A stretch of 64,000 bases of DNA from a virus, in IMG/VR virus record IMGVR_UViG_3300044712_000336, positions 1 through 64,000 of that record; one strand, written 5' to 3'. The translations under genes were made by a program, and so were the position numbers. How positions within the stretch are numbered: position 1 is the first letter of the stretch; every line of letters begins with the position of its first letter. Of the stretch, positions 5,936-47,969 are shown piece by piece. Below the pieces are notes generated by a model, which had not been told where the DNA came from, did not search any database, and saw only the letters and a program-made list of their open reading frames with translations.

Positions 5936-5967
5936 CAAAATTAGTTATAATATTAACTAAATACAAG
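5936..5967 (-). promoter_or_regulatory. Bacteroidota housekeeping-type promoter for the portal-MCP operon
   Basis: Minus strand CTTG-N20-TAATTTTG (-33/-7 consensus TTTG / TAnnTTTG). Confidence 0.65.
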
Positions 5968-6014
5968 TTTATTTTATAACTAATAAAAATATATTCCATC
6001 ACTAGTATAAATGA

Positions 6015-8198: not shown

Positions 8199-8205
8199 AT
8201 ATTAA

Positions 8206-9185: not shown

Positions 9186-9187
9186 TA

Positions 9188-10324: not shown

Positions 10325-10721
10325 TTTTAACTAAAAATTTAAAGAGTAACATATTTATGTTATCATCAGTATTAAGTTTAAATAAGAATTTATCATTAAT
10401 CTTATTATCAATTAATAATTTACCATAAGATGATTCTATTTTCCTTAATGATGATATGATATTATTCAATGTTGGTGTATTAACTGCTAGTATATTACAC
10501 ATATCTTTCCTTGATGACGTTGATAGTATTATTTCCCATATTACTGAATCATCAACACCTTTATCTACATAATCATTATATAGTAATAGTAAATGTGCTA
10601 ATAGTTCTATTTGTTTATTTGCAAGTTTAAGATTATACATTATATCAATAACTCTTGTATATACATCATAGAATTTCTTAGCACTTACTTGTACAGGAAT
10701 AACTAGTTTTCCATTATTCAT
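10212..10721 (-). CDS. Putative HTH DNA-binding protein
   Basis: SRKDMCNILAVNTPTLNNIISSLRK is winged-HTH-like. Confidence 0.45.
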   Translation of the reverse strand: MNNGKLVIPVQVSAKKFYDVYTRVIDIMYNLKLANKQIELLAHLLLLYNDYVDKGVDDSVIWEIILSTSSRKDMCNILAVNTPTLNNIISSLRKIESSYGKLLIDNKINDKFLFKLNTDDNINMLLFKFLVKNGNSTTNSSVRSIIPNKDGQNSNIQEERKEEVYSEEV

Positions 10722-10725
10722 ATTA

Positions 10726-10899
10726 TTATTTTAATTTTGTTGTATATACAACTTGTTTATTTTTTGGTGTTTTATCAAATGTGGATAAGTCATACGTTGT
10801 TATTCCATCTTTAGTACAACATACCCACACTTGATATATTTTATTTGTATTGAATGATAGTTTATTAGCAAGTTGTATAATATCATCCAGATTGTTCAT
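10726..10899 (-). CDS. Small hypothetical protein (57 aa, below ORF-track cutoff)
   Basis: MNNLDDIIQL... fills the gap between flanking genes exactly. Confidence 0.5.
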   Translation of the reverse strand: MNNLDDIIQLANKLSFNTNKIYQVWVCCTKDGITTYDLSTFDKTPKNKQVVYTTKLK

Positions 10900-10900
10900 A

Positions 10901-11782
10901 CTATAACGTATTTAAAAATTTATACAATTCATAATTCCATTTAGCATCGGCTAAAGCGTTATGTTCATTAGTCTGTTTTGGGTAATTAGGTAATTTTTCT
11001 ATTTCAAATTTAGGAGGATTAATACTACCTTCTTTAATACCCTTTTTAACATAATCTTCTTCAATATCATGTTTATACTGTTGTAGGTCTAAGCAGTACA
11101 TAGGAAACCCTTTAGGTAAATCCATCATAGTTCCAAACAACTGACAAAATACTACCCAGTCGTAATCACTGTAATATCCATAAAATTCTATATTATGTCC
11201 TTCTGCTAAATCTATTCTTTCTTGTATAAATGTAGTTTCACTTACTTCTTCTTTAAACTTAATTATGTTTTCTATACGTAAAGGATTAACAAATTCAGTA
11301 ATCTCTTTAGCAATTTGTTTATTGGATTTACCGTATTTATTAAGTAATCTTTCTAAACTATTAATACAAAAATCTTTGCTAAGATATTCTATAACTTTAT
11401 TACTTGTTCCTATATAATCTGAATCTGTTTCACACAAATTGTGATGATATTCTTTAGTATGTTTACTTTTTAATTCCTTCCAAATAGGTTTCAATACATT
11501 CTCCCTAACCCATTCATTCTTCCATGCAGCTTTTAAGTTAAAGTCTTTTGATATTGCATAGTATTCTTTTGTTACTTGTGGTTTATTTGTAAATTTCATA
11601 CCATATTCTTTCATGTATTCAAATTGTTTTTCTAATGGTATCTTAGTTTCAGATTGTAACTCACCAACTATCCCTATACTAATTAAATCAACAGTAGGTT
11701 TAGTTTCACCATATTTAATTCCTAAGAAGGTTTTATCTTGTTTACCTTCAATGAACTCGCAATCCATGAAATATTTGCTCAT
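10901..11782 (-). CDS. DEDDh 3'-5' exonuclease/exoribonuclease (Rv2179c-like)
   Basis: ExoI FMDCEF, ExoII YYSDYDW, ExoIII HNALADA. Confidence 0.8.
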   Translation of the reverse strand: MSKYFMDCEFIEGKQDKTFLGIKYGETKPTVDLISIGIVGELQSETKIPLEKQFEYMKEYGMKFTNKPQVTKEYYAISKDFNLKAAWKNEWVRENVLKPIWKELKSKHTKEYHHNLCETDSDYIGTSNKVIEYLSKDFCINSLERLLNKYGKSNKQIAKEITEFVNPLRIENIIKFKEEVSETTFIQERIDLAEGHNIEFYGYYSDYDWVVFCQLFGTMMDLPKGFPMYCLDLQQYKHDIEEDYVKKGIKEGSINPPKFEIEKLPNYPKQTNEHNALADAKWNYELYKFLNTL

Positions 11783-12525
11783 ATTTTCTTTATATTAAAA
11801 TTATAAACTTTTATGTTATTTTTTAAAGCTCTGTTAATTAATCCTTGATTACAGTTTGTATTACCTATTGATTTTAAATATTCACAACACTCTACTTGAG
11901 AATGAAATTCTTTATAAAAGTCATCTTTTAATAGAGCGACTTTAACTGTGCCAAACTCCCTTTTTCTTCTATCTTTTAATGGTTCATTTGCATAACTCCA
12001 TCTATATCCTCCAGCACTAAAAACTTTACCTTTACAACATTGACTTATATTGCTTTTAGATTTTATATTAGTATAGTCTTGTGCTTCTGTAATAGAAGTA
12101 AAATCCTTAATAAATTCATTATTCAAAGAATACATATTAATTTTAATAGCACAATGATGGTTACCTTTTATAATCGTTCTAGTTTTAGAATCTTCAGGGT
12201 GTTTATAGCCTTGTAAGCTTCCTGCTATTAAACAACTATTATAATCAGTTCCTTTATTAATATAAAATTGTTCCATTAATAAAACATTTTCTTGATTGCA
12301 AATACATACTATTTCAAAAGTAAAATTCTCAAAACCATATTTTTTAAATGCTCTATGCAAAACTGGTTGAGTATTTAATTCTTTTTTAACAGCCGAACAA
12401 TATTGTATATATCTATGTCTAAAATTACTAGTAGTACTTCCGATATAAATTTTATTATTTATATTATTAGTAATAGAGTAAACTCCTATTTTCCTCCAAT
12501 TATCATTTTCTACTTTGAATATCAT
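11779..12525 (-). mobile_element. Free-standing GIY-YIG homing endonuclease with NUMOD-like C-terminal domains
   Basis: GVYSITNNINNKIYIGST...RHR, conserved E and N; FTSITEA...NISQCCKGK...SAGGYRW is NUMOD1-like. Confidence 0.88.
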
Positions 12526-12586
12526 ATTAAATTGTTTTATCTACTTAAAATAGTACCGTTAAATGTATCTATAAAATATTTCATAA

Positions 12587-12772
12587 TTATTCTAGTATTT
12601 TACTTTTAAGATTATTATACTCTTGTTCACTTAATTTATCTTTATATTCTTCCAATTCGTCTAACATTGTTCTTTCTTGGTTTTTATCTTTTACATAATA
12701 CTCACATCCTTTTTCTACACTCATATAACAAGACTGATTTATTGGATTTTCACATATACAAAAGTTTTCCAT
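12587..12772 (-). CDS. Small hypothetical protein
   Basis: Coupled to the ferritin stop codon. Confidence 0.5.
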   Translation of the reverse strand: MENFCICENPINQSCYMSVEKGCEYYVKDKNQERTMLDELEEYKDKLSEQEYNNLKSKILE

Positions 12773-13275
12773 TATAATAATTCCTCAAATTTAAGTAATT
12801 CAATTCCTGTATTAGTATCAGTAATACCTAATCTCTTAGCAGTAATTAATGGATCACCAAACTTAGCTTCTTCTTCTACTTGTTCATGTACAAACCATTG
12901 TAGGAAATCATAAGTTACTTCATCCTTTTCTTCCTTTATTATTGGAAGTATAGTATTATATGATGTAGTGATGGAACATTCGTGTTGGTATGCTTTATTA
13001 ACTACATCTAATAATGACATATATTCAGATGGTACTTCTGTAATTGCAGGTGTTTTTGCATTACCATTTCTATCTAAAATATAATCAATTAATTTTCTAG
13101 CATGTTTTAATTCTTCATCAGCATATTGTCTAAACTTATCTTTAGCTTTATAAAAGCCATAACAATCACACCAATTACTCATAGCATTGTAAATATGAAA
13201 TGATTGATATTCACCTTGAACTCTTATGTTAAGTAAGTTCTCTGTACGATCTGAAATACGTTTTGTTAATTCCAT
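12772..13275 (-). CDS. ftnA: Non-heme ferritin
   Basis: Ferroxidase motifs EYQS..Y, EELKHA, HE, LQWFVHEQVEEE. Confidence 0.88.
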   Translation of the reverse strand: MELTKRISDRTENLLNIRVQGEYQSFHIYNAMSNWCDCYGFYKAKDKFRQYADEELKHARKLIDYILDRNGNAKTPAITEVPSEYMSLLDVVNKAYQHECSITTSYNTILPIIKEEKDEVTYDFLQWFVHEQVEEEAKFGDPLITAKRLGITDTNTGIELLKFEELL

Positions 13276-13276
13276 T

Positions 13277-14293
13277 TTATTTTAATATTAATTGTGTTAT
13301 TATTTGTTTATTCAATTCTTCTTTATTTTGATTTTGTAACTTAATTTTAGCATTATTTACGATCCTATCTCTTTCATCTTTATCCATTAATATGTCAATG
13401 GATTCTATTAAATCTACTTTATCATCAAATAACCATCCATGTATTCCATCATTTATAGATTGTGAGTATGGATATACATTACTAGCCACTAATGGAACAC
13501 TACATACTGTAGATTCAATAAACTTTAAATTAGATTTACATTTATTAAAACTATCATCTACTAATGGTGCTATTGATATATCTATTCTTTTGTATAGGTT
13601 ATAGTATTCTTCTAACTTCACTAATGGTACTACGTAAAAATTGTTCTTATATTTCCCATTAGTAGTTAAGATATTGTACATGTTTAGATAATCTTTATTA
13701 GTCTGCCCACCAAATAAGTAAAACTCATACTTATCTTTAAAATTCTTCTGTAAGAAATAGTTTAATCCTTTAAGTAGATTAATATCATGTCTATGACATA
13801 TCCCACCAAGATAACCTATTCTTACTTTCCCATTAGTTGATGGAACATGTGGTATTTTGTTTATATCTTCTTGTATATATGATGGAATAAAATTAGGCAA
13901 TACTATTACATTATTATTATATTGTAGCAATTCTTCCTGTAATGGAATAGTAGAACATGTTATTGTGTCTGAGTTTTCAATACAATATATTAATTCTTTT
14001 GTACGTGATTTTGCATAATCTTTATATAATATGTGATATGATGGAAGATTAATACTATCATCAATATCTAATACTATATGTATTTTAAGTTCATTTAATC
14101 TATCAATTATTTGTTTTGTTGCTAAACTATAATGGAATATTACTATTTGTATATCTGTGAAGTCTATATTCATAGACTCATATACAGGAATAAACTTTAT
14201 ATTATTTCCATTAATTAGTTGTTTATATTGATAATATATACGATATAACCCTGTAGCATCAAATGGTTGTGATATTAGTATTAATATATTCAT
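13277..14293 (-). CDS. GT-B glycosyltransferase (GT4-like)
   Basis: YR near N-terminus, DIDD, IAPLVDDSFNKCKSNLKFIE, VASNVYPY. Confidence 0.85.
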   Translation of the reverse strand: MNILILISQPFDATGLYRIYYQYKQLINGNNIKFIPVYESMNIDFTDIQIVIFHYSLATKQIIDRLNELKIHIVLDIDDSINLPSYHILYKDYAKSRTKELIYCIENSDTITCSTIPLQEELLQYNNNVIVLPNFIPSYIQEDINKIPHVPSTNGKVRIGYLGGICHRHDINLLKGLNYFLQKNFKDKYEFYLFGGQTNKDYLNMYNILTTNGKYKNNFYVVPLVKLEEYYNLYKRIDISIAPLVDDSFNKCKSNLKFIESTVCSVPLVASNVYPYSQSINDGIHGWLFDDKVDLIESIDILMDKDERDRIVNNAKIKLQNQNKEELNKQIITQLILK

Positions 14294-14294
14294 G

Positions 14295-14933
14295 TTATTT
14301 TTGAATTACTACTGTAAATCCATTACCTACTTTATCATCTTGTATTTGAACATGTGTTACTTTATAATTTAAGTATTCACAAATTTGTATAAATAAGTTT
14401 AAATCGAATACAGTCCAATGACCATGTTTAGTATCATATAGTATTCCTTCAATTATTGCTGAGCCTAATATTCCATCATTATCCTCAACTACTTTTTTTA
14501 ATATAATATCTTCAGATATTATTCCATCATGTCGTTGTAATAATTCCTTTAATGTTGTAGTTGGTCTTGTTTCATTAGGTACAAATTCTGTAATTGGTGC
14601 AATTGTATAAATATACCCACCTTTCTTTATAATTCTATACCATTCTTTTAACGCTTTAATGGGATCAAATATATGTTCTATTACATGAGACGATATAATA
14701 AAATCGTATGATTCATCTTGTACAGGAATATTATCACCATTTGCAACTATATCTACTTTCATTGCTTCACCACATAATTTATATTCTGCTTGTTTAAATA
14801 CTGTATTCATATCATCTGAATAATCTACATTTAATGTATTTAATCCAAATGAATTATGTGCAGATCCACCTATCTCTAATCCTATTAGATTATCTAATAG
14901 TTTATGTGCTAATTTTGATTCTTTAAATTTCAT
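14295..14933 (-). CDS. Class I SAM-dependent methyltransferase
   Basis: GLEIGG, YDFIISSHVIEHIFDP, WYRIIKKGG. Confidence 0.85.
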   Translation of the reverse strand: MKFKESKLAHKLLDNLIGLEIGGSAHNSFGLNTLNVDYSDDMNTVFKQAEYKLCGEAMKVDIVANGDNIPVQDESYDFIISSHVIEHIFDPIKALKEWYRIIKKGGYIYTIAPITEFVPNETRPTTTLKELLQRHDGIISEDIILKKVVEDNDGILGSAIIEGILYDTKHGHWTVFDLNLFIQICEYLNYKVTHVQIQDDKVGNGFTVVIQK

Positions 14934-15014
14934 GTTTATCTGACCCGAAGGATACCTTTATCAATTACCCTACTATTAATAACATATTTTAATATATAAC
15001 TATCCACATAATAT

Positions 15015-15656
15015 TTAATCCTTAAATTCACTAAAATCATCCCATCCTTTAGATACACATAGTAAGGTTAAATACCCCATAATGTCAGATATATCATTCT
15101 TACGTAATGTATCACTATTCTTAATACGACTTAATTTATCATCTAGTCTTATTAAAATAGACCCTTCTGATGATTCTTTACTGAATACATTAATAGGTTG
15201 TAATGCTGAATTACCATATTTTTGATTCTTATATTGTAGTAATATATTCATAGCATTTAATACTTTTGTTATGTTATTGTTTTCTATATTTACTTTATAA
15301 GTGTTTGTTGATTTATCAAAAGTTCTATCTATTCCATCAATAGTTGTTTTATCTATACCGTCTTCTGGATCTAATAAAACTTCAGTTGAAGTATTTAATA
15401 ATCTTATTATATTTTCTAATCTTATATTTGTTATACCAGTACATTCATAAGTTTTATTTGTCAGAACTGTGATTAAATCATCTATATTTTTTATATCATA
15501 ACCTATGATATACCTTGTTAGTAGATTTACTAATACTTCCAAATCTGTATTTAGTTTAGATTGTATATCCTTTGGTTCAGTAGTATCAACTACATATTCA
15601 TCATCACCTTTACCATTAGTTGTTGATAATGATTCTTTATATTCTTTATAATCCAT
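15015..15656 (-). CDS. Protein with C-terminal DUF1599 (nucleotide-modification-associated domain 1)-like domain
   Basis: KNQKYGNS...IRLDDKLSRI...DIMGY. Confidence 0.7.
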   Translation of the reverse strand: MDYKEYKESLSTTNGKGDDEYVVDTTEPKDIQSKLNTDLEVLVNLLTRYIIGYDIKNIDDLITVLTNKTYECTGITNIRLENIIRLLNTSTEVLLDPEDGIDKTTIDGIDRTFDKSTNTYKVNIENNNITKVLNAMNILLQYKNQKYGNSALQPINVFSKESSEGSILIRLDDKLSRIKNSDTLRKNDISDIMGYLTLLCVSKGWDDFSEFKD

Positions 15657-15782
15657 GTTGTTTTTAGTTATTGTTTAATAGTTATTAAGATTGTAGGTAG
15701 GACGTCGGCATAGGTGTGCCTCCGCTTAGTGGACAGGTATTCTTATTTATATACGCAGTATATTCCTTCACATAGATACTAT

Positions 15783-16610
15783 CTATATTCCAATTAATAT
15801 CTCCTCCGAAGGATCAACTCTCTCATCAAGTGCAATCTGTATATCTGATAATGATATAGTATTACACATTTCTATATTATAAGATCTATCTTCCTTCAGG
15901 ATAATTATCCTCGATTCTTCAAACATATCTGGTTGTATATGAAGTATTCTTCCATTATCTAATATAATATTACCTAATAAACGATATGTTCCAAGTTGTA
16001 TCTCATAATGAGATCGTTTACATTGTGGATACTTCTTGAATGGATCTTTTGGATATTTATTATATGTTTTATCTATGTCGGAAGATGTCTTCCAATCCAT
16101 TATACAATACTTACCTGTATGTATATTTTGTATTAACCTATCAATAGTACCTGCAAGTTTATATCGTTTACTATATACTTTAAGTTCATTACCGATTAGT
16201 CGGTATGTTTTAGATGAATCTTTGATAAATTTTACTACTGCATATTCCTTATTAAACATTGGTATAGTTGATGTAGGATCTAAGTCATACATCTCTGAGA
16301 ATATATGTAATCCTGTTCCATAGGATGTAGCCCTATTACTATTAAGGTTCCAGTAATGTACCCTCTGTTGTGGTGTTAATGTGTTTACTATACCTTTCTT
16401 ATTATTAGATGAGGTTAATCCTACTGACACACCTAATGGATTAAATGGTTTCTCAAATGTATTTATCCATGATGTTACACGATCTAAATATGTGTTATCA
16501 ATTTTATATTTGTTTACCGTAGGATCAAGGATTATTTTATCTTCTCTTATTGTAGGAACATGTTTATACTTACTATCACTTGTAGATACACCTTTCGTAA
16601 TTTTTGCCAT
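15783..16610 (-). CDS. PD-(D/E)XK (RecB/Cas4-like) nuclease
   Basis: GTGLH, ELKV, AGTIDRL, IMDWKT, YEIQLGTY. Confidence 0.85.
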   Translation of the reverse strand: MAKITKGVSTSDSKYKHVPTIREDKIILDPTVNKYKIDNTYLDRVTSWINTFEKPFNPLGVSVGLTSSNNKKGIVNTLTPQQRVHYWNLNSNRATSYGTGLHIFSEMYDLDPTSTIPMFNKEYAVVKFIKDSSKTYRLIGNELKVYSKRYKLAGTIDRLIQNIHTGKYCIMDWKTSSDIDKTYNKYPKDPFKKYPQCKRSHYEIQLGTYRLLGNIILDNGRILHIQPDMFEESRIIILKEDRSYNIEMCNTISLSDIQIALDERVDPSEEILIGI

Positions 16611-33430: not shown

Positions 33431-34050
33431 ATCCTGTTTCAGATAATGTTGAAAGATTAATTAAGATATATACTAATAATGTAAAAGTAGTAACTGTTAC
33501 TAAGAAAGATGATTTAGGTATATCTTACGAAGAAAAGGAAATAACAGATGTTCCTTTATTAAGAAGAGATGAGGAATTAATGGATAGATATTTACTTAAA
33601 TCTTATTCAGAATACCAAGAGTATATATCAAAATTCTCTCGAAATAATAAAAGAGATATATTAATAAGATTAGATATACTATCAATAGATGGTGATAAAT
33701 TCCAAATTGAGTATATTAATATTAGATCACCTAAAGATATACTAGAAAAAGTATATCAAGACTTTGATATGAATGGTATTCCAGTAAAGGAAATATTCAT
33801 ACGTTCAGTAACAGATATAACATCAAGATTTAGTATTAAAGATATAATTGATATTTTTACTAAATATAATGAATATAAACTTACTCATAGTAATAATGAA
33901 GTAAGATTATATATACAAAAGTTATCTAAAAATATTGCAGATTTAGTTATGTTCCTTGAAGGTGTTATAACTAATAGACAGCTTGATAATATTAAAAGTG
34001 TAGATAAAGATGATGAATCATTAATTGAAGATGATAATGAACTTTTCTGA
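33415..34050 (+). CDS. Hypothetical protein
   Basis: Operonic ORF between UDG and PolB. Confidence 0.6.
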   Translation: MEHVLNPVSDNVERLIKIYTNNVKVVTVTKKDDLGISYEEKEITDVPLLRRDEELMDRYLLKSYSEYQEYISKFSRNNKRDILIRLDILSIDGDKFQIEYINIRSPKDILEKVYQDFDMNGIPVKEIFIRSVTDITSRFSIKDIIDIFTKYNEYKLTHSNNEVRLYIQKLSKNIADLVMFLEGVITNRQLDNIKSVDKDDESLIEDDNELF

Positions 34051-36157
34051 TTATAATTATTATACATTTGATTGGGAAATTAAACCAAATTATGCTTGTG
34101 TAGTATTTAAAAGTAAAGCAGATACTTATGCAACATTTAGAATATATAATTCAAGTAATCCAGATAGTTCCTATAGTAGAAATGATATTAAGAAAATATT
34201 AGGATTACTTCAACATATAATAAGAACAGAAAGTATAATAATTTCCTATAATGGAATAGAATATGATAATCTTATTAATAATTATCTTATAAATAATCAG
34301 AATAAATTACGTGATGCTAATGCTGATTATATAACTAAATTATTATGGGAATACAATAATAAGATTATAAATACAGAAAGACATTATAGTAAAGATAAAT
34401 ATTTCAAATTTATAGATATATATAAAATGAGTGGTTTACATAAGAAGTATAAATCACTAAAAGAAGCACTAATTAATATAAAATGGCATAAAATACAAGA
34501 TTTTCCATTATCATTTAATACACCAATGGAAGATGAACATATAGATATGTTTGAATTATATTGTAAAAATGATGTTGATGGATTAGATGCTTTACGTATA
34601 TTTCTACAAAAACAAATTGATGATAGATTTGCAATATATAAACATACAGGAAATGTTAATGTAATAACTGCTGATGAAAGTAAGTTAGGTGATATAGAAT
34701 TTGAACGTATGTATTGTGAAGAATTAGGTGTATTACCTGACGATATAAAATCATTACGTACAAATAGAGGAATAATAAAATTATCAGAAGTAATTCAATC
34801 TAATGTTAAATTTAATAGTAAAAAAATGAATTTAATATTAGAACAATTACAAAATATAGAAGTGAATTGTGATATGAATATAACTAAACTTACATATGAT
34901 ATACCAACTTTTGAATATGGTGGAATTGCAATACAACTAGGTGCCGGAGGTATCCATTCCGTAGATAAAGGTAATATATTCATTACGACTGATATTTATA
35001 AGATAAAAGATATTGATGTAGCATCTGAATATCCAAATGCTATAGTAAAAATGAATGTTATTCCAGAACATATAAAACAATTAGAGAAAGAGTTAGGTAA
35101 GAATGTATTTATTCCATTAATGGAAAGAATTATAAAAGAGAGAATTGAGTTTAAACATGCTGGAATAGATAGTAAAGCATATTTATATAAAATTATGCTT
35201 AATTCAAGATATGGTAAGTTAGGAAGTATAGATAGTTGGTTATATGATAGAAAATGTGTGCTACAAGTTACTATTAACTGTCAATTATATATGTTAATGT
35301 TAGTTGAAATGTTAGTAGATGCAGGAATACAGGTAATATCTATGAATACTGATGGAATAACTTGTAAATTACATATTGATCAAATTGATAAGTATAGAGA
35401 AATATATCATAATTGGGAAAAATATACAGGATTTCAATTAGAGGAAAATGAGTATATCAAATATATAAGAATGGATATTAATGCTTATATTGCTACATAT
35501 ATAGATAAAGGAAAACTTAAAATAAAACGTAAAGGTAGATTAAATAAAGATTTAGCTACTGATGATTTACGTAAAGCATTTGATATGCCAGTTATTCCAT
35601 TAGCAGTAGAACAATATTTTCTAAATAATATTCCTGTAGTAGAAACAATTACCAATCATAAAGATATATATGATTTTTGTACATCTCAAAAGATTGATAA
35701 AAAGTTTCAAAATAAGATAAGATATATAAATCTTAATGGAACTAATAAAGAAGAAAATATACAAAGATCTGTTAGATTTTATGTAAGTAAAAATGGATAT
35801 AAGTTATATAAAGTTGATTTAGTAAAAAAGAAAGAGTTAGATACTCAAGAAGATGTTATATTACATACTAATGGAAATAGTATGAGTATTAGTAATAGAA
35901 AACTTTTAGTAGGTAAAAAAGAAAAAATACTACATAAAAGAGATACATTTAATACTAATGGTTATACTGATCATTGTGCAGGACAATTTGTTACATTACT
36001 TAATGATTATATTGAATATGATGAATTTAAGAAATATAATATTAATTATGATTATTATATAAATGAAGCAAATAAACTTATACAACAGATAAAACATGAG
36101 AATAATATAACTAAACAAATGTCAATTGAAATACCAACACAATTAAGATTATTTTAA
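34031..36157 (+). CDS. DNA polymerase family B (crAss-type)
   Basis: Exo FDWE, YNGIEYD, YCKND; polymerase DIDVASEYP, KIMLNSRYGK, NTDG; start at ATG 34031 or 34037. Confidence 0.92.
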   Translation: MIMNFSDYNYYTFDWEIKPNYACVVFKSKADTYATFRIYNSSNPDSSYSRNDIKKILGLLQHIIRTESIIISYNGIEYDNLINNYLINNQNKLRDANADYITKLLWEYNNKIINTERHYSKDKYFKFIDIYKMSGLHKKYKSLKEALINIKWHKIQDFPLSFNTPMEDEHIDMFELYCKNDVDGLDALRIFLQKQIDDRFAIYKHTGNVNVITADESKLGDIEFERMYCEELGVLPDDIKSLRTNRGIIKLSEVIQSNVKFNSKKMNLILEQLQNIEVNCDMNITKLTYDIPTFEYGGIAIQLGAGGIHSVDKGNIFITTDIYKIKDIDVASEYPNAIVKMNVIPEHIKQLEKELGKNVFIPLMERIIKERIEFKHAGIDSKAYLYKIMLNSRYGKLGSIDSWLYDRKCVLQVTINCQLYMLMLVEMLVDAGIQVISMNTDGITCKLHIDQIDKYREIYHNWEKYTGFQLEENEYIKYIRMDINAYIATYIDKGKLKIKRKGRLNKDLATDDLRKAFDMPVIPLAVEQYFLNNIPVVETITNHKDIYDFCTSQKIDKKFQNKIRYINLNGTNKEENIQRSVRFYVSKNGYKLYKVDLVKKKELDTQEDVILHTNGNSMSISNRKLLVGKKEKILHKRDTFNTNGYTDHCAGQFVTLLNDYIEYDEFKKYNINYDYYINEANKLIQQIKHENNITKQMSIEIPTQLRLF

Positions 36158-39660: not shown

Positions 39661-40313
39661 TGGTTTATATTGATAGTATCCCATTAATTTCACAAAGTAA
39701 TGGTTTAACATCATTAGAAACAATTTTCCTTTATAGTATATATAATGGTAATATCAAATTTAAAAATGAGATTATAGAAGAATTAACTCAAGCAAGTTTA
39801 ACTAAATTAGCTAAACAAGGATATTTATTATCAGATGTTCCTGTAGTACATGATATGAGTAAAATTAGATCATTATTCCTACAATATGAAGATAATAATA
39901 AAAATGTTCCTGTACTAGATAATAATGTATATAATGTTGACAACTGGATAGATACATATCGTAAATTATTCAAAGGTAAATGTTTTAAAGCAGTACCAAT
40001 GGGTAATAGGCAAACATGTATAGTAAGAATGAAATGGTTCTTAAATAAATATCCAGATTATGCAGATATTGAATTAATTAAACAAGCTACTGAATTAGGA
40101 ATATCTACAATTACATCTAAATATGGTAAAGATTATGTACCACAAGCAGATAACTTTATAGTCGTAGATGAATATAAAACTAGTGGTGGATTTGGTATTG
40201 CTAGTAAATTATATAAAGCAGGTAAAGAATATTTAGTTAATTATTGTGAGATGATCACTGAAGGAAATATTGTTGAAGATAATAATAGACCAATATCTAG
40301 TATTGATTTATGA
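39660..40313 (+). CDS. Conserved protein upstream of helicase (possible loader/replication protein)
   Basis: WIDTYRKLF...ADNFI; overlaps the helicase start. Confidence 0.5.
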   Translation: MVYIDSIPLISQSNGLTSLETIFLYSIYNGNIKFKNEIIEELTQASLTKLAKQGYLLSDVPVVHDMSKIRSLFLQYEDNNKNVPVLDNNVYNVDNWIDTYRKLFKGKCFKAVPMGNRQTCIVRMKWFLNKYPDYADIELIKQATELGISTITSKYGKDYVPQADNFIVVDEYKTSGGFGIASKLYKAGKEYLVNYCEMITEGNIVEDNNRPISSIDL

Positions 40314-41398
40314 TATATGATAGAGTAAAAGAGTTAGCAATTAAGAATAAGAAATTAAGAGAAGCTGATAAATTAGTATGTATTCCATTTAATAAAGTAT
40401 TACCAAGATTTAGTACTTTAATCCCTGGAATTATAAAAGAAAGATATATAATTGTTACAGCCAACAGTAAAGTAGGTAAAAGTAAATTAACTGATTTCTT
40501 ATTCCTTTACACACCATATAAAGTATTATATGAGCAATATAAAGGTAAATCTAATATTAAATTAAAGATATTTTATTTTACATTAGAATTATCTAAAGAA
40601 AAAAAGATAGCTGAATTATTAGCATATAAATTATATGAGGATAAAAAGTTAAATTTAGATATACAACGTATTAATAGTATGTTTGATGATTACATACTTA
40701 CTGATGAAGTTGTTGGTTATATGGAGGAATATAATGAATGGTTTAAACAATTTGAAACTATAGTAGAATTTATAGATGATATAAGAAATCCTTTTGGTAT
40801 ATACAATCATGTCCGTAGTTATGCTGAATCTCATGGAAAATATGTAAAAAAGACTATAAAGATAGATAAAAAAGATGTAGAAGTAGAAGATTATTATATA
40901 CCAGATGATCCAGATGAACATGTTATAATAATAACAGACCATGTTGGATTATTAACACCTGAAGCTAAGGATAATAATGATGTAAGGACTGCTATAGGAA
41001 GATTTAGTAAAGAATATTGTTTAAAGATGAGAGATAGATGGAAATATACAGTAGTTAATGTACAACAACAAACCTTAGCACAAGAAGGTGTTGATAATAT
41101 AAAATTAAATAAATTACAACCATCTGCTGCTGGATTAGGTGTAAATAAAGAAACAAGTCAAGATGCTAATTTAATATTAGGATTATTTAGTCCAGCTAGA
41201 CATGATATTTCATCATATAAAGGTATAGATATTACTAGATTAGGTGATTCATATAGAGAATTATCTGTAATATATAATAGAGATGGTAGTATGGCTGAAG
41301 TAGGGTTGTTTTTTAATGGTGCAGTTAATTACTTTGAAGAATTACCAAAAAATATAAAAGATACAGATTATCCAAGATATTTAAAAATGTTAAAATAA
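40310..41398 (+). CDS. DnaB-like (SF4) replicative helicase
   Basis: TANSKVGKS Walker A, YFTLE, IITDHV Walker B, NVQQQ, SQDAN, NRDG. Confidence 0.85.
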   Translation: MIYDRVKELAIKNKKLREADKLVCIPFNKVLPRFSTLIPGIIKERYIIVTANSKVGKSKLTDFLFLYTPYKVLYEQYKGKSNIKLKIFYFTLELSKEKKIAELLAYKLYEDKKLNLDIQRINSMFDDYILTDEVVGYMEEYNEWFKQFETIVEFIDDIRNPFGIYNHVRSYAESHGKYVKKTIKIDKKDVEVEDYYIPDDPDEHVIIITDHVGLLTPEAKDNNDVRTAIGRFSKEYCLKMRDRWKYTVVNVQQQTLAQEGVDNIKLNKLQPSAAGLGVNKETSQDANLILGLFSPARHDISSYKGIDITRLGDSYRELSVIYNRDGSMAEVGLFFNGAVNYFEELPKNIKDTDYPRYLKMLK

Positions 41399-41404: not shown

Positions 41405-42502
41405 ATGAAAGTATTACAACAAGGTAGTATATATGATTTTATTGACAATTCTATTAATGTTAATTTATTAAATGAATTACCAATAGGTATTTATGATGTA
41501 GTTTCTACAATAAGAGGATTAATGCTTCAAAAAAGAGAAATTTCTATATTTGAAGATATAACTAAAAGTTATGGAAAATTACCATTATTACGAGAAAAAT
41601 TTAAAACTGAAATTAGTTATTATGATAAATTGGGTATATTATTACTAGGTGAAAAAGGCTCTGGTAAAAGTTTATTAGCTAAACAAATATGTAATGATAG
41701 TAATTTACCTATTGTAATAGTTAAAGAGTCTTTTGAAGGTTCTGAATTAAGTGATATATTAAATAATATACCTAATAAATTTATTTTATTTATAGATGAA
41801 TTTGAGAAGCTATTTTCTACAAATAGTAAAGAAAAGAATAATCCACAAGATAAATTTTTATCTATTTTAGATGGAAATGATACTTCTAAATTTATTACGT
41901 TATTAACAGCTAATGATGAAAATAAAATTAATTCTTATTTCAAGAACAGAACTAAAAGAATTAAATATTTTATTGAATTTGAAGTACTGAATAAACAAGA
42001 TGTAGAAGAAGTTCTTATAGATATGAATATTGATAAAGAAATACAAAGTAAGATTATTAATATTCATAGAATTGTTGGAGAATTAAATTATGATGTATTA
42101 ATGGAAGTTATTAACGAATTTAAACGTTACCCTAATTATTCATTAAATGATATTTTATATTTTCTAAATATAGAAATAAAGGAAAGTGAGTATAATTTAA
42201 CAGTTTATTCAGATATTAACGGTAAAGAAGAACCAATTGCAATAGATAAAATTGTATGTAACCCTTATTTAGATATAAATATAGACATATACCCTAGATC
42301 AAAAGGGGATTATATTGTAAATTCTAAGGATAATACTATTAATATTGATGAAACGTTTGATAATAGTAAATATTCAATTATAACAGATAATAATTGTGTT
42401 AGACTTACTTTAAAAGAAGAGTATAGTAAACAAGGAGTTGATTTTGGTAAATTAGAATTTATACTAACACCTTATTTCCCAAACATAAAATTAGCAATTT
42501 AA
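41405..42502 (+). CDS. AAA+ ATPase
   Basis: GEKGSGKS, FIDEFEK, TAN, NRTKR. Confidence 0.85.
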   Translation: MKVLQQGSIYDFIDNSINVNLLNELPIGIYDVVSTIRGLMLQKREISIFEDITKSYGKLPLLREKFKTEISYYDKLGILLLGEKGSGKSLLAKQICNDSNLPIVIVKESFEGSELSDILNNIPNKFILFIDEFEKLFSTNSKEKNNPQDKFLSILDGNDTSKFITLLTANDENKINSYFKNRTKRIKYFIEFEVLNKQDVEEVLIDMNIDKEIQSKIINIHRIVGELNYDVLMEVINEFKRYPNYSLNDILYFLNIEIKESEYNLTVYSDINGKEEPIAIDKIVCNPYLDINIDIYPRSKGDYIVNSKDNTINIDETFDNSKYSIITDNNCVRLTLKEEYSKQGVDFGKLEFILTPYFPNIKLAI

Positions 42503-42516: not shown

Positions 42517-42741
42517 ATGGAAGAAAAACAATATTGTGAAGAATGTGGTGAAGAACTAATTAATGGTATATGTTTTAATGATGAATGTGCATCATCACCG
42601 TATTATATAAGTGAAGATGAAGAAAATGATGAAGATTGGTGTGAATTATGTGGTGATGAGATGATTGATGGATATTGTAGTAATCCATCATGTGAAAATT
42701 CAGAAGAATACAATGAAGATAACGAAAATACAGAAGAATAA
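42517..42741 (+). CDS. Acidic protein with two Cys4 repeats
   Basis: CEECGEELINGICFNDEC and CELCGDEMIDGYCSNPSC. Confidence 0.65.
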   Translation: MEEKQYCEECGEELINGICFNDECASSPYYISEDEENDEDWCELCGDEMIDGYCSNPSCENSEEYNEDNENTEE

Positions 42742-42908
42742 TGGCTAAAGAAGTAACAACAACAGTAAAGAATCCATCAGGAGCAGTAGTTAAACAATGT
42801 TCTTGTAAACATGAATTTCAAGATGAAATACATGGTAAAGGAATGAGAGTTCATAATGTAACAACTAAAGGTAATAAATGTACTGTATGTGGAAATATTA
42901 ATCGTTAA
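42741..42908 (+). CDS. Small zinc-binding protein (55 aa, below ORF-track cutoff)
   Basis: CSCKHEFQD...RVHN...CTVCG; ATG overlaps the preceding stop. Confidence 0.7.
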   Translation: MAKEVTTTVKNPSGAVVKQCSCKHEFQDEIHGKGMRVHNVTTKGNKCTVCGNINR

Positions 42909-42918: not shown

Positions 42919-43353
42919 ATGATACAAGTAAGGCAAAATGTATTTGAAACTAATAGTTCAAGTACACATAGTGTTAGTATTTCTTATGAAGGTGATTTAA
43001 CAGATATTCCAATACCAGATGATAATGGAATAGTTCATGTAGATACAGATGAATATGGGTGGGAAGAATGTGAATATAATGATTTATATAGTAGATTATC
43101 TTATGCAGCTACTTATGCTTTAAATTATGGAAGTGAAGAAAATAAAGAGTTATTAACTGAAGTTATTAAACAATACAGTGGTGCAAAAGAAGTATTATAT
43201 GATCATAATAATAATCCAGTTTATTGGAAACATGGTTATATAGACCATCAAAGTACAGACACAGTGGCTGATATATTTGAATCAAGAGAAAGTTTAGTTA
43301 ATTTTCTATTTAATCCAAATTCATATTTTATTACAGATAACGATAATCATTAA
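42919..43353 (+). CDS. FETNSSSTHS-motif protein 1 (true start ATG 42919)
   Basis: MIQVRQNVFETNSSSTHS; also GYIDHQS and terminal DNDNH. Confidence 0.8.
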   Translation: MIQVRQNVFETNSSSTHSVSISYEGDLTDIPIPDDNGIVHVDTDEYGWEECEYNDLYSRLSYAATYALNYGSEENKELLTEVIKQYSGAKEVLYDHNNNPVYWKHGYIDHQSTDTVADIFESRESLVNFLFNPNSYFITDNDNH

Positions 43354-43357
43354 AATT

Positions 43358-43600
43358 ATGATACAAATAAGAAATTCAATTTTCGAAACTAATTCCATTA
43401 GCACACATAGTATTACTATTTGTACACCAGAAGAATGGAGTAAATTAGAGTCTGGTGACTATGATGGATTAGATGAAAGATTAATAGAGAAGTTTGAAAA
43501 TAATTATAGAGATTCATATATGGAAACATATAGTTATGAAACTACTACTCCGGGTGGTGAAAAAATAAGATTATTTGGAGATTATGGAAGGGATGGTTAA
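43358..43600 (+). CDS. FETNSSSTHS-motif protein 2
   Basis: MIQIRNSIFETNSISTHS. Confidence 0.8.
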   Translation: MIQIRNSIFETNSISTHSITICTPEEWSKLESGDYDGLDERLIEKFENNYRDSYMETYSYETTTPGGEKIRLFGDYGRDG

Positions 43601-44063
43601 TATAAGAAAAAATGTGTTTGAAACAAATAGTAGTTCAACACACTCCATTACTATTGGCAATATAAATTCAAAACCATTAGAATTATTAAAAGATGGTATA
43701 TTAAATCCACAACTACTAATTGATAAATATGTTGCTTATAATTATGAATATAAAATAGTATGTTATAATTTAGAAGAGAAATTAGCGTTAGTAACATTAT
43801 GGATTTTGTGTGATAGATGGAATGTTACTGATGAAATTAGAGAAGAATTATTAAATATAATTAAAGAAGAGTTTAATATAGTTAAAATATTAGATTTAAA
43901 AGAGTTAAGATTTTCTTCACAAGATGATGACGATGATATATTATTTGATTATGGTTATGAAGAAGAAATTGATATTATTTCAACAAAAAAGAAGTTATAT
44001 GAATTAATAAATATTATAAAAGATGACAGTAGATTCATTAGTGATATCAAAGAAGAAAGATAA
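43593..44063 (+). CDS. FETNSSSTHS-motif protein 3 (true start ATG 43593)
   Basis: MVNIRKNVFETNSSSTHS. Confidence 0.8.
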   Translation: MVNIRKNVFETNSSSTHSITIGNINSKPLELLKDGILNPQLLIDKYVAYNYEYKIVCYNLEEKLALVTLWILCDRWNVTDEIREELLNIIKEEFNIVKILDLKELRFSSQDDDDDILFDYGYEEEIDIISTKKKLYELINIIKDDSRFISDIKEER

Positions 44064-44937
44064 ATTAGTAGAATATAAAAATGGTAATACTACAGTTACT
44101 ATATATAAAGATGGTACAAAAGTAAGAGAGTTTGAAGGTATTCCAGTAGTGGAACATCCTGAAAGTATGGATATTAAAATTACTAATTATTGTGATTTAG
44201 GATGTCCATATTGCCATGAAAATTCTACTATTAAAGGAAAACATTCAGATTTATTCTTACTAAAGGAAAAATTGGATATACTTCCAGCAGGTATTGAATT
44301 AGCATTAGGTGGTGGTAATCCATTATCTCATCCAAATTTAGTACAATTTTTAGAATGGTGTAAAACTAAGGGATTTATAGCTAATATAACTATTAATGAA
44401 AAACATATAAATAAGTATAATGAATTAATTATAGATTTAATAACAAGAGATTTAGTCAAAGGTATTGGTATATCTGTTACTGAAGGAAATATTAATCTTA
44501 TTAAATCATTATATAAATTATCATCAAATATAGTATTACATTTAATTGTGGGAATAAATACTATTGAACAAATTGAAGAATTATGTACTATAAAAGGTAT
44601 AAAAGTATTATTACTTGGGTACAAAACATTTGGTAGAGGAATATCATACTACTCTCAAGATATAACAGATAATATTAATAAATGGTATAAACATCTTCCT
44701 ACATTAGTAGGAAAGTTAGTATTAAGTTTTGATAATCTGGCTATTGAACAATTAAATGTAAAGAGATTATTTACATCAAAAGGATGGGATAGATTTTATA
44801 TGGGGGATGATTTTACTTTTACTATGTATATTGATGCAGTAGAACAACAATATGCTCCTACAAGTAGATCTGATGATAGACAATCTTTTAAAGATTATAA
44901 TGTAATACAATATTTCAAAACATTTAAAAATAAATAA
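44023..44937 (+). CDS. Radical SAM enzyme
   Basis: CDLGCPYCHE (CxxxCxxC), GGGNPL, NITIN; no C-terminal SPASM cysteines. Confidence 0.9.
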   Translation: MTVDSLVISKKKDKLVEYKNGNTTVTIYKDGTKVREFEGIPVVEHPESMDIKITNYCDLGCPYCHENSTIKGKHSDLFLLKEKLDILPAGIELALGGGNPLSHPNLVQFLEWCKTKGFIANITINEKHINKYNELIIDLITRDLVKGIGISVTEGNINLIKSLYKLSSNIVLHLIVGINTIEQIEELCTIKGIKVLLLGYKTFGRGISYYSQDITDNINKWYKHLPTLVGKLVLSFDNLAIEQLNVKRLFTSKGWDRFYMGDDFTFTMYIDAVEQQYAPTSRSDDRQSFKDYNVIQYFKTFKNK

Positions 44938-45758
44938 TGGCACAAAGGATAGCAATATTAGGTGAACCAAATTCAGGGAAATCTTATAGTAGATCTTTTA
45001 TAACAAATTCAGATAGTGTATTTGTACTAGCTCCTTCAGATAAGAAGTTATATTTAAAGAAATCTGATGGAAATAGATTAGATTATTTTAATATAAGTAC
45101 ACAAAAATTAAAAACTACTGAAGAAGTAGCAAAAGTATGTAATAAAAATACTGATGATATTTGTGGAATAATTGATGTACTTACTAAAAAAGGTATAGAG
45201 TTTTCCTGTACTGGAAATTATATAGTTAATTATCGTATAGAAGATGCAGGAACAATACTTAATATAATTAGTAGTAAAATGATACATATAAATACAGTAA
45301 TAATTCCAGATTTTACACATTTTATTAGTGCAGAAATAAGTGAAATAGATTTTATTAAACGTAAGTCTGGTGGTGATGCTTTTGCTAAATATTTAGAACT
45401 AGCAGCAAACTCATTAAATTCCTTTATTAAGAGTGTAGATTTATTACGTAAAGATTTAATTGTAGTTACAGAGTATCATATAGAGTATGATGAAATTGAT
45501 GGAAATTATCATATATTTGTTCCTGGAGGCAAGATGATGGTAGAGAAGTTTAAATTAGATAGTTATTATGATTATATATTATATACTAAATATATAGATG
45601 ATAATAATGTAAAATTCAATGATAGGTTTAAATTTGTAGTTAGACGTGATGGAAAATATAATGCACGTTCTTCTGGTATATTCGGTGAACAAATACTAGT
45701 TCCAAACAATTTACAAATTGTATTAGAGAAGGTTAGAGAAGATAATGGTATAAAATAA
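44937..45758 (+). CDS. AAA_24/Sak4-like P-loop NTPase (recombination/annealing)
   Basis: GEPNSGKS, VIIPDF, GKM...KLDSYYDYILY. Confidence 0.75.
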   Translation: MAQRIAILGEPNSGKSYSRSFITNSDSVFVLAPSDKKLYLKKSDGNRLDYFNISTQKLKTTEEVAKVCNKNTDDICGIIDVLTKKGIEFSCTGNYIVNYRIEDAGTILNIISSKMIHINTVIIPDFTHFISAEISEIDFIKRKSGGDAFAKYLELAANSLNSFIKSVDLLRKDLIVVTEYHIEYDEIDGNYHIFVPGGKMMVEKFKLDSYYDYILYTKYIDDNNVKFNDRFKFVVRRDGKYNARSSGIFGEQILVPNNLQIVLEKVREDNGIK

Positions 45759-45950: not shown

Positions 45951-46766
45951 ATGGCTATTTCAAAAAACAATTTGTCAAAAGCATTAGAAGTTAAAGAACG
46001 TAAAGTACGTGAATCTAAAGGTACAGTTAAACCTGAATATAAACCAATTGATAATACAAATAGGTTTGTAATTTCAGCTCAAACAATGAGGGGTTCTGAT
46101 AATATCAAACTTAATGGTCGTATTTATGATCCAACTGTAGCAGAACTTGCTAAATCTAAAGGTAAATTGAAAGATAACTTTGCTTTCCTTCATGGTGAAG
46201 CTGGTAAACTATTCTTAGTTGTAGTTGATGCTGATAAAATGGCACATATTCAAGGTTTGAATGGTAAGAATGCAGTATGTGGGCAAGAATTTGCTGAAAC
46301 TAAAGTAATTAAAGGTGAACGTGCAGGTGAAGTAATGGTAGTTGATCGCAGACGTCAGTTAAACATGGCTAAATTTGGTATGCCTGTATCAGATTCAAGG
46401 AACTGTCAGAAATTTGAAATACCAACAACTGGTAAATTGATTGCTAATACTGTTGCTACAATTGGTAAAGATAATGTAGAACGTATTCTTGATGGTAAGA
46501 ATCTACGTTATGTAATTGGAACTAAAGTAGAACTTAGTATTCCAGTTGATACTAATAAGTTGATTGATCCTTCATTGGAAGGTAAAACTAATGCTCGTTA
46601 TGCTAAAGAAGATGTAACATTTGTAGCATTTGAACTTACACCAAAGTTTAAAACTGAAGTTAAAGGTGAAGAAGTAGTATCGACTACTGAAATTGAAAGT
46701 GAAGAAGTTGAAGTTGAAGTTGAAGTTGAAGTTGAAATTGAAAGTGAAGAAGAAGTAGAAATCTAG
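45951..46766 (+). CDS. Basic protein with acidic low-complexity tail (possible ssDNA-binding/nucleoid protein)
   Basis: Has its own promoter and terminator; EVEVEV tail. Confidence 0.55.
   Translation: MAISKNNLSKALEVKERKVRESKGTVKPEYKPIDNTNRFVISAQTMRGSDNIKLNGRIYDPTVAELAKSKGKLKDNFAFLHGEAGKLFLVVVDADKMAHIQGLNGKNAVCGQEFAETKVIKGERAGEVMVVDRRRQLNMAKFGMPVSDSRNCQKFEIPTTGKLIANTVATIGKDNVERILDGKNLRYVIGTKVELSIPVDTNKLIDPSLEGKTNARYAKEDVTFVAFELTPKFKTEVKGEEVVSTTEIESEEVEVEVEVEVEIESEEEVEI
46704..46733 (+). repeat. (GAAGTT)5 coding tandem repeat
   Basis: Five exact units flanked by a direct repeat GAAATTGAAAGTGAAGAAG. Confidence 0.85.
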
Positions 46767-46790
46767 GTTAAACCAACCTATATAACGATG

Positions 46791-46823
46791 AGGGTATTAT
46801 CTTAATTGGTAATACCCTTTTTT
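46791..46823 (+). terminator. Intrinsic terminator
   Basis: AGGGTATTA...TAATACCCT followed by a T run. Confidence 0.8.
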
Positions 46824-46877: not shown

Positions 46878-47687
46878 ATGGCAAAGATTAAAGAAGGTAC
46901 TGGTAATGGTAAATTTGTTGGTTATGTTCCTGCACAGATTCAAGTAGTAAACCCAACTGTTCAACAAAAGAAAGAAGTATTAGGATTTGAACAAGATCCT
47001 ACTAAAGAAGTAAAAGGGTATACTGGTATTAATAGTAATAGTAATGCTAAATATCTAATGTTACAATTTTGGTTTAGTATTAAATCACCAGAGGTAAGTC
47101 CTAAATATAAGGATTCATTTACAATATTCTTATCCGATGAACAGGATTCAATGGGTAGTCCTGAGAATGGTTTATTAGGATGGATTGATGATGATGGAAA
47201 TATTGATTATGCCCAATCACCAGCAGAAGCAGAAGAAAAAACTAGTGAAAGAGGGTATAAATTCTCAGCAAAAACAGCAAGGAAATTATATAAAGGTGAA
47301 TCTGTTATGATGTCTTTATATAAAGCTATTCATGGTAAAGGAAGTTCTTTTGTATTAGATCAAGAATTAATTGATACTTTATTGAATGATGCAGAAGAAA
47401 GTAATGTATTATTGAATACTTGGTTTATCAGTAAAGGGAAAGATGGTAAAATCAACAAGACTATAGGTATCCTTCTTGGAATGGATGAAAAAGGTAATAC
47501 TAAATTATATGATAAAGCATTTGGTACTTTAGATTGGATTAAAAAGAAATTGGAAAAGAATAATTATTTTAAAGCACAATTTCCGTCTGATTTTGCTCTT
47601 ACATCATGGACTAAAGATGATTTAGTTGGTGATGATGTAGATGAGTTCTTTGAAGAAGATGATGCTGTAAATGAAGATCAATTTTAA
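46878..47687 (+). CDS. Putative single-stranded DNA-binding protein (crAss-type)
   Basis: VVNPT motif; acidic C-terminus ending in F; located in the replication module. Confidence 0.55.
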   Translation: MAKIKEGTGNGKFVGYVPAQIQVVNPTVQQKKEVLGFEQDPTKEVKGYTGINSNSNAKYLMLQFWFSIKSPEVSPKYKDSFTIFLSDEQDSMGSPENGLLGWIDDDGNIDYAQSPAEAEEKTSERGYKFSAKTARKLYKGESVMMSLYKAIHGKGSSFVLDQELIDTLLNDAEESNVLLNTWFISKGKDGKINKTIGILLGMDEKGNTKLYDKAFGTLDWIKKKLEKNNYFKAQFPSDFALTSWTKDDLVGDDVDEFFEEDDAVNEDQF

Positions 47688-47711: not shown

Positions 47712-47969
47712 ATGAATTTTGGACAAGCAATTGAAGCCTTAAAAGAAGGTAAAAAATTACAAAGATCTGGATGGAATGGTAAAGGAATGTTTGTATATTA
47801 TGTTCCTGATAATACTTTTAAAACTTTAACAGAAGTAGCTAAAACACATTTTGGTGATGAATTAAAATTTAATGCTTATTTTGCTATAAGGAATGTAAAT
47901 AATACAGTAAGTATGTGGGTTCCATCAATTAATGATTGTTTAGCAGAAGACTGGACAATTATAGAATAA
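47712..47969 (+). CDS. tad2: DUF2829 / Tad2-like anti-Thoeris sponge protein
   Basis: MNFGQAIEALKEGKKLQRSGWNGKGMF...WVPSINDCLAEDW. Confidence 0.8.
   Translation: MNFGQAIEALKEGKKLQRSGWNGKGMFVYYVPDNTFKTLTEVAKTHFGDELKFNAYFAIRNVNNTVSMWVPSINDCLAEDWTIIE

Follow-up and report, generated by a model that had tools for sequence, protein, structure and literature searches.

Several radical S-adenosylmethionine (SAM) enzymes are known to act on peptides or folded proteins. SuiB, which acts on SuiA in the streptide system, SkfB and CteB are maturases of ribosomally synthesised and post-translationally modified peptides (RiPPs); they hold their peptide over SAM, docked partly by β-strand pairing, and possess auxiliary SPASM or twitch clusters and a winged-helix RiPP recognition element (RRE). 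The anaerobic sulfatase-maturating enzymes (anSME, AtsB) need two auxiliary SPASM clusters and serve, with one enzyme, several folded clients carrying a short conserved Ser/Cys motif near the N-terminus, and the modified residue joins the active site of the client. The activases PflA and NrdG are small single-cluster enzymes that act on a folded partner encoded adjacent to them, and NrdD/NrdG pairs are borne by phages among nucleotide-metabolism genes. DesII, BlsE and viperin, likewise without auxiliary cluster, use free sugars or nucleotides as substrates. Here, we describe a phage gene module that resembles these systems in part and differs from all of them. It is located in the window, i.e. 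the whole analysed stretch of 64,000 nucleotides (positions 1 to 64,000 of IMG/VR record IMGVR_UViG_3300044712_000336), which is part of a complete 104.7-kb phage genome with terminal repeats. The module consists of three genes encoding proteins A, B and C with a common N-terminal tag, followed by the gene of a radical SAM enzyme. The reading we favour, with some reserve, is that of a protein-maturation module in which this dedicated single-cluster enzyme modifies the N-terminal tag of client proteins.

The four genes are co-directional and closely packed, with a gap of 4 nt between A and B, an overlap of 8 nt between B and C, and the stop codon of C (44061-44063) located 41 nt into the radical SAM open reading frame (ORF), counted from its ATG at 44023. 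Between 40000 and 45758, no terminator-like site was found between genes; the sole palindrome (44695-44714) lies inside the radical SAM gene. The module comprises the following features.

42919..43353, plus strand: gene of protein A, 144 aa, a full-length A-type tag protein and core partner of the enzyme; ORF confirmed
42919..42972, plus strand: tag of A, first 18 codons, MIQVRQNVFETNSSSTHS; main enzyme contact in the complex model
43358..43600, plus strand: gene of protein B, 80 aa, B-type with the tag followed by a short acidic body; ORF confirmed
43358..43411, plus strand: tag of B, MIQIRNSIFETNSISTHS
43593..44063, plus strand: gene of protein C, 156 aa, a diverged paralogue of A; ORF confirmed
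43593..43646, plus strand: tag of C, MVNIRKNVFETNSSSTHS
44023..44937, plus strand: gene of the radical SAM enzyme, 304 aa, single-cluster type without auxiliary-cluster cysteines
44062..44133, plus strand: enzyme residues 14-37, three-stranded N-terminal β-sheet according to the secondary structure of the AlphaFold2 (AF2) model, with conserved Y18, N20, G21, G31 and T32 and predicted pairing with tag residues 2-5
44191..44214, plus strand: codons of C57-D-L-G-C61-P-Y-C64, the CxxxCxxC site binding the [4Fe-4S] cluster

The first 18 residues of A, B and C align without gaps from the initial methionine, share the pattern M-x-x-[IV]-R-x-x-[IV]-F-E-T-N-S-[SI]-S-T-H-S and show pairwise identities of 12-14/18. 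Their serine codons (AGT/TCA/AGT in A, TCC/-/AGC in B and AGT/AGT/TCA in C) belong to both the AGY and the TCN families. As a switch between these families needs two base changes, selection acts on the peptide and not on a DNA or RNA element. The coordinates, identities and codons thus bear out an earlier note on this DNA, which had described three consecutive genes with a near-identical, ungapped N-terminal motif and divergent synonymous codons indicative of selection on the peptide. Among 257 unique tag proteins collected from all loci, the consensus is M-x(2-3)-[IV]-R-x-x-[VT]-F-E-T-N-S-S-S-x-H-[SA], with the Arg invariant wherever this position exists. In 233 of 278 ORFs, 8-9 residues separate the tag from the Met, and the Ile that takes the place of the middle serine in B is rare (1/257). 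An invariant Gly is not part of the tag; at position -2, Gly occurs in only 88 of the 257 proteins. The bodies behind the invariant tag fall into 32 clusters, and the tag proteins are acidic throughout with a median isoelectric point (pI) of 4.6 (4.25, 4.43 and 4.56 for A, B and C, respectively).

Linkage between the tag and the enzyme was seen from either side. When A was used to pick 80 IMG/VR loci, 77 of them contained an enzyme homologue on the same strand, mostly directly downstream. When the enzyme was used to pick 80 viral loci, a tag ORF lay within 8 kb in 76 of them, and one further enzyme-picked record contained tags far from the enzyme. Proteins with the motif are therefore mostly accompanied by the enzyme, as implied by the coupling that the earlier note had proposed. 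In prokaryote assemblies, the enzyme was found in 57 of 76 loci, which are mostly contigs of metagenome-assembled genomes (MAGs) with few isolates, e.g. Eubacterium plexicaudatum ASF492; ten enzyme-less exceptions were checked, and for five of these the enzyme turned up at another place in the same bin or record. A full-length A-type protein is present in 70 of the 76 tag-bearing enzyme-picked loci, and exactly one A and nothing else in 48 of them. This near-universal occurrence identifies A plus enzyme as the canonical system, and the array in the window, with A, a tag-only and a partial-A protein, is an expanded form of it. A, B and C are the only three tag genes in the whole 104.7-kb genome. 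The bodies of 24 of the 110 tag ORFs in enzyme-picked loci share only the tag with A. The largest arrays comprise 10 same-strand tag ORFs within 10 kb beside one enzyme gene (L124 and L143, Prevotella/Fibrobacter MAG contigs), and in Lak-A2 (L002:3836-7184) the enzyme gene is followed by five tagged genes. Beyond A and the enzyme, no third gene family was common to the loci, and no protease, exporter or immunity gene was conserved near the module across them. Recognisable neighbours were DNA polymerases, helicases, dUTPase, SbcCD and homing endonucleases.

Fusions of A with the enzyme are common in metagenomes, where dozens of proteins of 430-700 aa combine an N-terminal A domain with PF04055. 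Salmonella phage Arash encodes such a fusion as gp146c (L159:4443-5873, OQ632216.1) with the tag I-R-Y-G-F-A-T-N-S-S-S-S-H-S; its annotation as 'methyltransferase' is probably wrong, and the Arash paper contains no discussion of gp146c. The module is also carried by the cultured Microcystis phage Ma-LMM01 as gp130 (A-type), gp129 and gp128 (enzyme). These genes belong to one middle expression class, B5, together with replication genes (PMC5780444), and a promoter was called only upstream of gp130 (PMC5780444, supplementary file 4); the module homologues are co-transcribed in the middle class. The pair of enzyme and tag is present in thousands of phages, spread over cyanophages, Lak megaphages and gut, marine and soil phages, and the hosts of phages with the A-type family belong to the Bacteroidota, Firmicutes, cyanobacteria, enterobacteria and candidate phyla.

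The enzyme shows features of the radical SAM superfamily, namely the cluster motif C57-x3-C61-x2-C64, a match to Pfam PF04055 (31.3 bits, E 2.8e-7, above the gathering cut-off of 29.5) and a partial (β/α) barrel fold. In PHROGs it matches phrog_16999 (E 5.9e-76), for which the library label is only 'Fe-S oxidoreductase'. Since C57, C61 and C64 are the only invariant cysteines among 44 homologues, with C113 and C188 not conserved, SPASM and twitch cysteines are absent, and no invariant non-cluster cysteine that could act as hydrogen donor was found among these homologues. The description of the third gene as overlapping a CxxxCxxC radical SAM gene that lacks SPASM cysteines, given in the earlier note, is thus correct. 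The AF2 model of the enzyme, with a predicted local distance difference test (pLDDT) value of 91.6, consists of the three-stranded N-terminal sheet (14-37) and a barrel of alternating strands and helices, and gave 67 fold matches in the PDB at E<=0.001 with radical SAM enzymes on top. The closest solved relatives were SuiB (1.1e-5), GDGT-MAS and SkfB (8.2e-4) by profile, and SuiB (E 7.6e-8, template modelling (TM) score 0.56), SkfB (TM 0.61) and CteB by fold comparison with Foldseek. Further fold matches were BlsE, AbmM, SpeY, viperin, DesII, EpeE, PqqE and anSME, the latter represented by anSMEcpe (4k39, E 5.3e-4). DesII, BlsE and viperin, which matched with E values from 5e-6 to 3e-4, are similar in size to the window enzyme. 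All 20 NCBIfam matches of the enzyme remained far below the curated cut-offs (best TIGR04317, 33 bits versus 380), no anSME model was among them, and none of the known small-molecule families viperin, QueE, MoaA, NrdG and PqqE reached its NCBIfam cut-off. With peptide maturases as nearest structures, the enzyme stands outside the known small-molecule and nucleotide-modifying families; it is membership in such a family that the earlier note had named as incompatible with its proposal.

In some related loci, the enzyme gene is interrupted. In L016 (L016:6846-8950, IMGVR_UViG_3300002138_000052), the N-terminal part of the fractured gene ends with C-D-A-N-C-P-F followed by intein-like sequence, a free-standing HNH endonuclease ORF (7324-8115) lies between the enzyme parts, and in the C-terminal part an intein half ends with V-H-N, after which the enzyme resumes at C-H-E-K-S-T. 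This layout indicates a split intein exactly at the third cluster cysteine. In L086 and L136, the enzyme is also encoded in two pieces. Rhodothermus phage RM378 encodes a distant relative of the enzyme (28% identity) with a gene upstream that lacks the tag.

Compared to RiPP maturases, the window enzyme is without SPASM or twitch clusters and without a winged-helix RRE, and has its own three-stranded N-terminal sheet instead. Furthermore, the segment predicted to be bound is the invariant N-terminus of proteins that are folded and 80-330 aa long, the loci have no protease or exporter in common, and the module is found only in phages, among replication genes. The anSMEs share the logic that we propose for A, but the two auxiliary clusters they need are absent here, and the client motif C/S-x-P/A-x-R differs from R-x-x-x-F-E-T-N-S-S-S-x-H of the tag. 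The anSME clients are of the alkaline-phosphatase fold; no chain of this kind came up when A was searched by fold (best Z 2.4). The activases resemble the window enzyme in their single cluster and adjacent partner; however, the NrdG2 model TIGR02495 scores 23.5 bits against a cut-off of 131.15, the tag is without an invariant Gly, and their site is C-terminal while the tag is N-terminal. A glycyl-radical reading of G-Y-I-D-H-Q in A was rejected, because G106 is not invariant and this G-Y is not at the predicted interface. DesII, BlsE and viperin have no tagged protein partner, and the prokaryotic viperin model reaches only 21.3 bits on the window enzyme compared to a cut-off of 180. Radical SAM/SPASM genes with C-terminal peptide motifs occur in vWA-MoxR conflict systems (Kaur et al. 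2020, PMC7159879); this is a different system. A published description of a tag and radical SAM system like the present one was not found in the literature searched.

The complex of A with the enzyme was predicted with the [4Fe-4S] cluster and SAM included and with own homologue alignments for both proteins. It reached a score of 0.87 (0.83, 0.89 and 0.87 in the runs) compared to 0.00 for the best of three controls. The score mark had been calibrated without riding ligands and without own alignments, unlike the present run; 58 of 80 solved complexes reached it, as did 2 of 110 mismatched pairs. At least 55% of the contacts agreed between runs, and the partner pLDDT was at least 69. On the side of A, the predicted interface is formed by residues 1-23 together with 25-33, 85-89 and 131-133; on the enzyme side, it is formed by residues 30-39 and the invariant barrel lining, i.e. 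D50, H65, E92/A94/G96, N121/T123, 146-149, H173, 194-201 including K201, 233-239 including F236-L239, 253-263, Y269 and 280-282. The contacts with the lowest predicted error are those of A residues 2-5 with enzyme residues 32-36. The model, in which residues 1-23 of A are threaded into the enzyme barrel, supports binding, with the tag predicted in the active site. The earlier note had proposed that the motif is coupled to the enzyme as substrate or docking tag; the coupling is sustained by linkage, fusions and complex model, and a covalent change of the motif is what we infer. Nothing supports the self-processing site which the earlier note had offered as a variant.

Searches of Pfam, NCBIfam and PDB sequences with A, B and C returned no match, and A matched only phrog_28997 in PHROGs (E 5.9e-14), which bears the library label 'unknown function'. 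At least 375 homologues of A were collected, none of them with a Pfam domain or an informative name, and an exhaustive profile search extended the family to 6,728 clusters at 50% identity (E<=0.001; 916 at E<=1e-30), with the matches nearly always beginning at residue 1-3 of the protein. The homologue alignment revealed as invariant R5, F9-E-T-N-S-S-S-x-H17-S18, G47-W48, Y62, Y107-I-D-H-Q111, F131 and D142-N143, and the pattern in the body looks like an enzyme or ligand site. As W48, Y62, Y107-Q111 and D142-N143 lie outside the predicted interface, with F131 as the exception, the body argues for a function of its own, and A is probably a small enzyme or a ligand-binding protein. The A-type protein is thus a near-universal core partner with an own invariant site outside the predicted interface. 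In the AF2 model of free A (pLDDT 92 overall, >90 in the body), residues 1-14 are coil, and pLDDT averages 63 over residues 1-10 and 80 over residues 11-20; such a poorly placed N-terminus is typical of a partner-binding segment. Neither Foldseek against the PDB (none at E<=0.001) nor an exhaustive VIA-align search (best Z 2.4) revealed solved relatives of the A fold, and a fold search of BFVD returned only family members and one A-enzyme fusion. An A-like fold joined to a Tad2-like domain (a viral cluster of 261 aa in the Atlas, TM 0.66 to A) was not confirmed by sequence searches: PF11195 was absent among the best 120 matches in the range of 134-427 aa, and ten long relatives were without Pfam domain. 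In the metagenome protein P0183 (490 aa), a complete A-type domain comes after an N-terminal region that is kinase-like (PF13671/PF01591) and HD-like; the tag of this domain is internal, at about residue 307, and has its own Met. Either domains for nucleotide or RNA-end processing are truly fused to the A-type domain here, or the gene call is an artefact.

For residues 1-96 of protein C, hhalign gives an alignment with the A family at a probability of 97.5%, and a profile search of its own genome detected C with 46 bits over positions 3-100 of the A profile. C retains the tag and the N-terminal half of the A fold, while the G-W, Y-I-D-H-Q and D-N-D-N motifs are lost, and is judged from its sequence to be a degenerate, diverged paralogue of A. 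Of B, the tag alone (27 columns) aligns with the A profile. Its body ends with F-G-D-Y-G-R-D-G, and the recurrent short acidic B-type proteins end with F-G-x-Y-G; this body cluster comprises 47 unique proteins from 42 loci, among them one of 101 aa from a Lak phage. The bodies of all three proteins had been called unrelated and acidic in the earlier note: they are acidic and B shares nothing but the tag, but C is related to A.

In the mechanism that we propose for the maturation module, tag residues 2-9 with the invariant Arg and Phe would dock as a β-strand on the N-terminal β-sheet of the enzyme, and the invariant E-T-N-S-S-S-x-H loop would be held in the barrel above SAM and the [4Fe-4S] cluster. 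From a loop residue, most likely one of the three serines, the 5'-deoxyadenosyl radical would take a hydrogen, leading to a covalent change, and the matured tag would then act jointly with the acidic body. The A-type client would probably be a small enzyme or ligand-binding protein needing the modified tag, with B and C as accessory clients of the same enzyme, and the module would be co-expressed with the DNA-replication and nucleotide-metabolism block in which it sits. Candidate chemistries are an oxidation of serine to a carbonyl, by analogy with DesII-type single-cluster dehydrogenation, a DesII-like elimination cutting the backbone beside serine, an epimerisation with a tyrosine donor (Y269 is invariant), or a crosslink involving F9 or H17. 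DesII, a single-cluster enzyme that oxidises or eliminates beside a hydroxyl, is a possible precedent for serine chemistry. We regard as unlikely, and put forward tentatively, a more far-reaching version in which the A-type proteins have a new fold and form a new class of small phage enzymes for DNA replication or nucleotide metabolism, and in which their catalytic group is installed post-translationally by the radical SAM enzyme from a serine of the N-S-S-S loop and is used by B, C and other paralogues as further clients. Three kinds of installed group would then be conceivable: a carbonyl resembling that of formylglycine, a carbonyl prosthetic group arising from backbone cleavage through DesII-like elimination, or a stored radical passed on via the invariant Trp/Tyr.

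Several points weigh against maturation of the tag. The complex of A and enzyme is a prediction only. To our knowledge, nearly all peptide-oxidising or -crosslinking radical SAM maturases use auxiliary clusters, which this enzyme does not possess, and the 44 homologues offer no invariant non-cluster Cys to donate a hydrogen for epimerisation; thus, no known chemistry fits cleanly. Loci without partner exist (L025, L090, L092, L231 and L234), although they are mostly fragments. The invariant 'core' beside varied bodies is the reverse of the usual RiPP pattern, and the frequent fusions and the near-universal 1:1 core of A and enzyme would also fit a two-subunit enzyme. In the latter case, the A-type protein would be an obligate subunit whose tag loop acts as a permanent plug completing the radical SAM pocket, the holoenzyme would have a third molecule as its substrate (the neighbouring genes make a nucleotide, DNA or RNA probable), and paralogues with other bodies would alter specificity or regulation. 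We take this explanation, the main rival of tag maturation, seriously but consider it rather doubtful. Common A-enzyme fusions are expected for subunits of one enzyme, 48 of 76 loci hold exactly one A and one enzyme, and the neighbours are replication and nucleotide-metabolism genes, alongside which the Ma-LMM01 module is expressed in the middle class. Missing auxiliary clusters are normal for small-molecule radical SAM enzymes, with DesII, BlsE and viperin among the fold matches, and a polar Ser/Thr/Asn/His loop would suit phosphate or sugar binding. On the other hand, up to 10 tagged proteins per enzyme and 24 of 110 bodies that share only the tag with A are a pattern of clients, peptide maturases lead the matches both by sequence and by fold, the AF2 model of the free protein shows a flexible tag, and the invariant pocket of A lies outside the predicted interface. 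The tag is more readily understood as a substrate than as part of a subunit, given that one enzyme serves many clients, that tag-only paralogues exist, that the tag is flexible in the model of the free protein, and that the enzyme is akin to peptide maturases.

RiPP maturases are the nearest solved relatives and the peptide is predicted in the barrel, as would be expected if the N-terminal peptide were modified, cleaved and released as a bioactive peptide with the bodies as follower or recognition domains. We consider such a product highly improbable: it is at odds with the lack of a conserved protease, exporter or immunity gene nearby, with a would-be core that is invariant in 257 proteins, where a conserved leader and a varied core are usual, with a large and conserved body of A bearing its own invariant site, and with the position of the module among replication genes. 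Some groups of phage proteins, such as the T4 internal proteins, combine a shared N-terminal signal with unrelated bodies, and by this precedent the tag might be a capsid-targeting, export or degradation signal next to the enzyme gene by chance. We give almost no credence to a signal unrelated to the enzyme, as about 95% of loci, from diverse phages, show the linkage of tag and enzyme whichever of the two was used to pick them, A-enzyme fusions exist, and the complex model passes with controls at 0.00. Its variant, in which A, B and C are merely recent tandem duplicates, is excluded by the switches between serine codon families and by identities of 12-14/18 beside diverged bodies.

According to neighbours assigned by Pfam and PHROGs, the module is positioned inside the replication block of the phage, together with the following genes.

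34025-36157: DNA polymerase
40310-41398: DnaB-like helicase
41405-42502: AAA ATPase
44937-45758: Sak4-like protein

Directly upstream of gene A, two small Cys-rich, zinc-ribbon-like proteins are encoded (42517-42741, 74 aa, and 42741-42908, 55 aa). As tblastn detected no homologue of either near the module in 156 related loci (0 matches), they are not part of the system. The Sak4-like gene is followed by genes for two proteins of about 270 aa (45951-46766 and 46878-47687) with strongly acidic C-terminal tails and no PHROG match, and a strong terminator-like hairpin is located at 46790-46819. An 85-aa protein (47712-47969) matches only the C-terminal part of the longer phrog_872, phrog_1048 and phrog_30130 (function unknown). 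The structural and packaging block, including portal (3423-5849, phrog_6547) and large terminase (6015-8198, phrog_6681), is located on the minus strand at window positions 1-16600, and the GC skew changes sign near 16 kb, at the flip of gene direction.

For the A-type family with its 6,728 clusters, we found no paper, and there is neither a Pfam or NCBIfam entry nor a structure, yet it resides in phage replication blocks. Solving the system could assign a function to a large block of viral dark matter. Cultured carriers, namely Ma-LMM01 with gp130 and gp128 and Arash with the gp146c fusion, make the system testable, the predicted substrate being a peptide of 20 residues. As a radical SAM maturase, the enzyme would be directed at proteins and would have neither auxiliary clusters nor a glycine target. 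As no described chemistry explains such a combination of enzyme and target, solving it would probably add a new post-translational modification.

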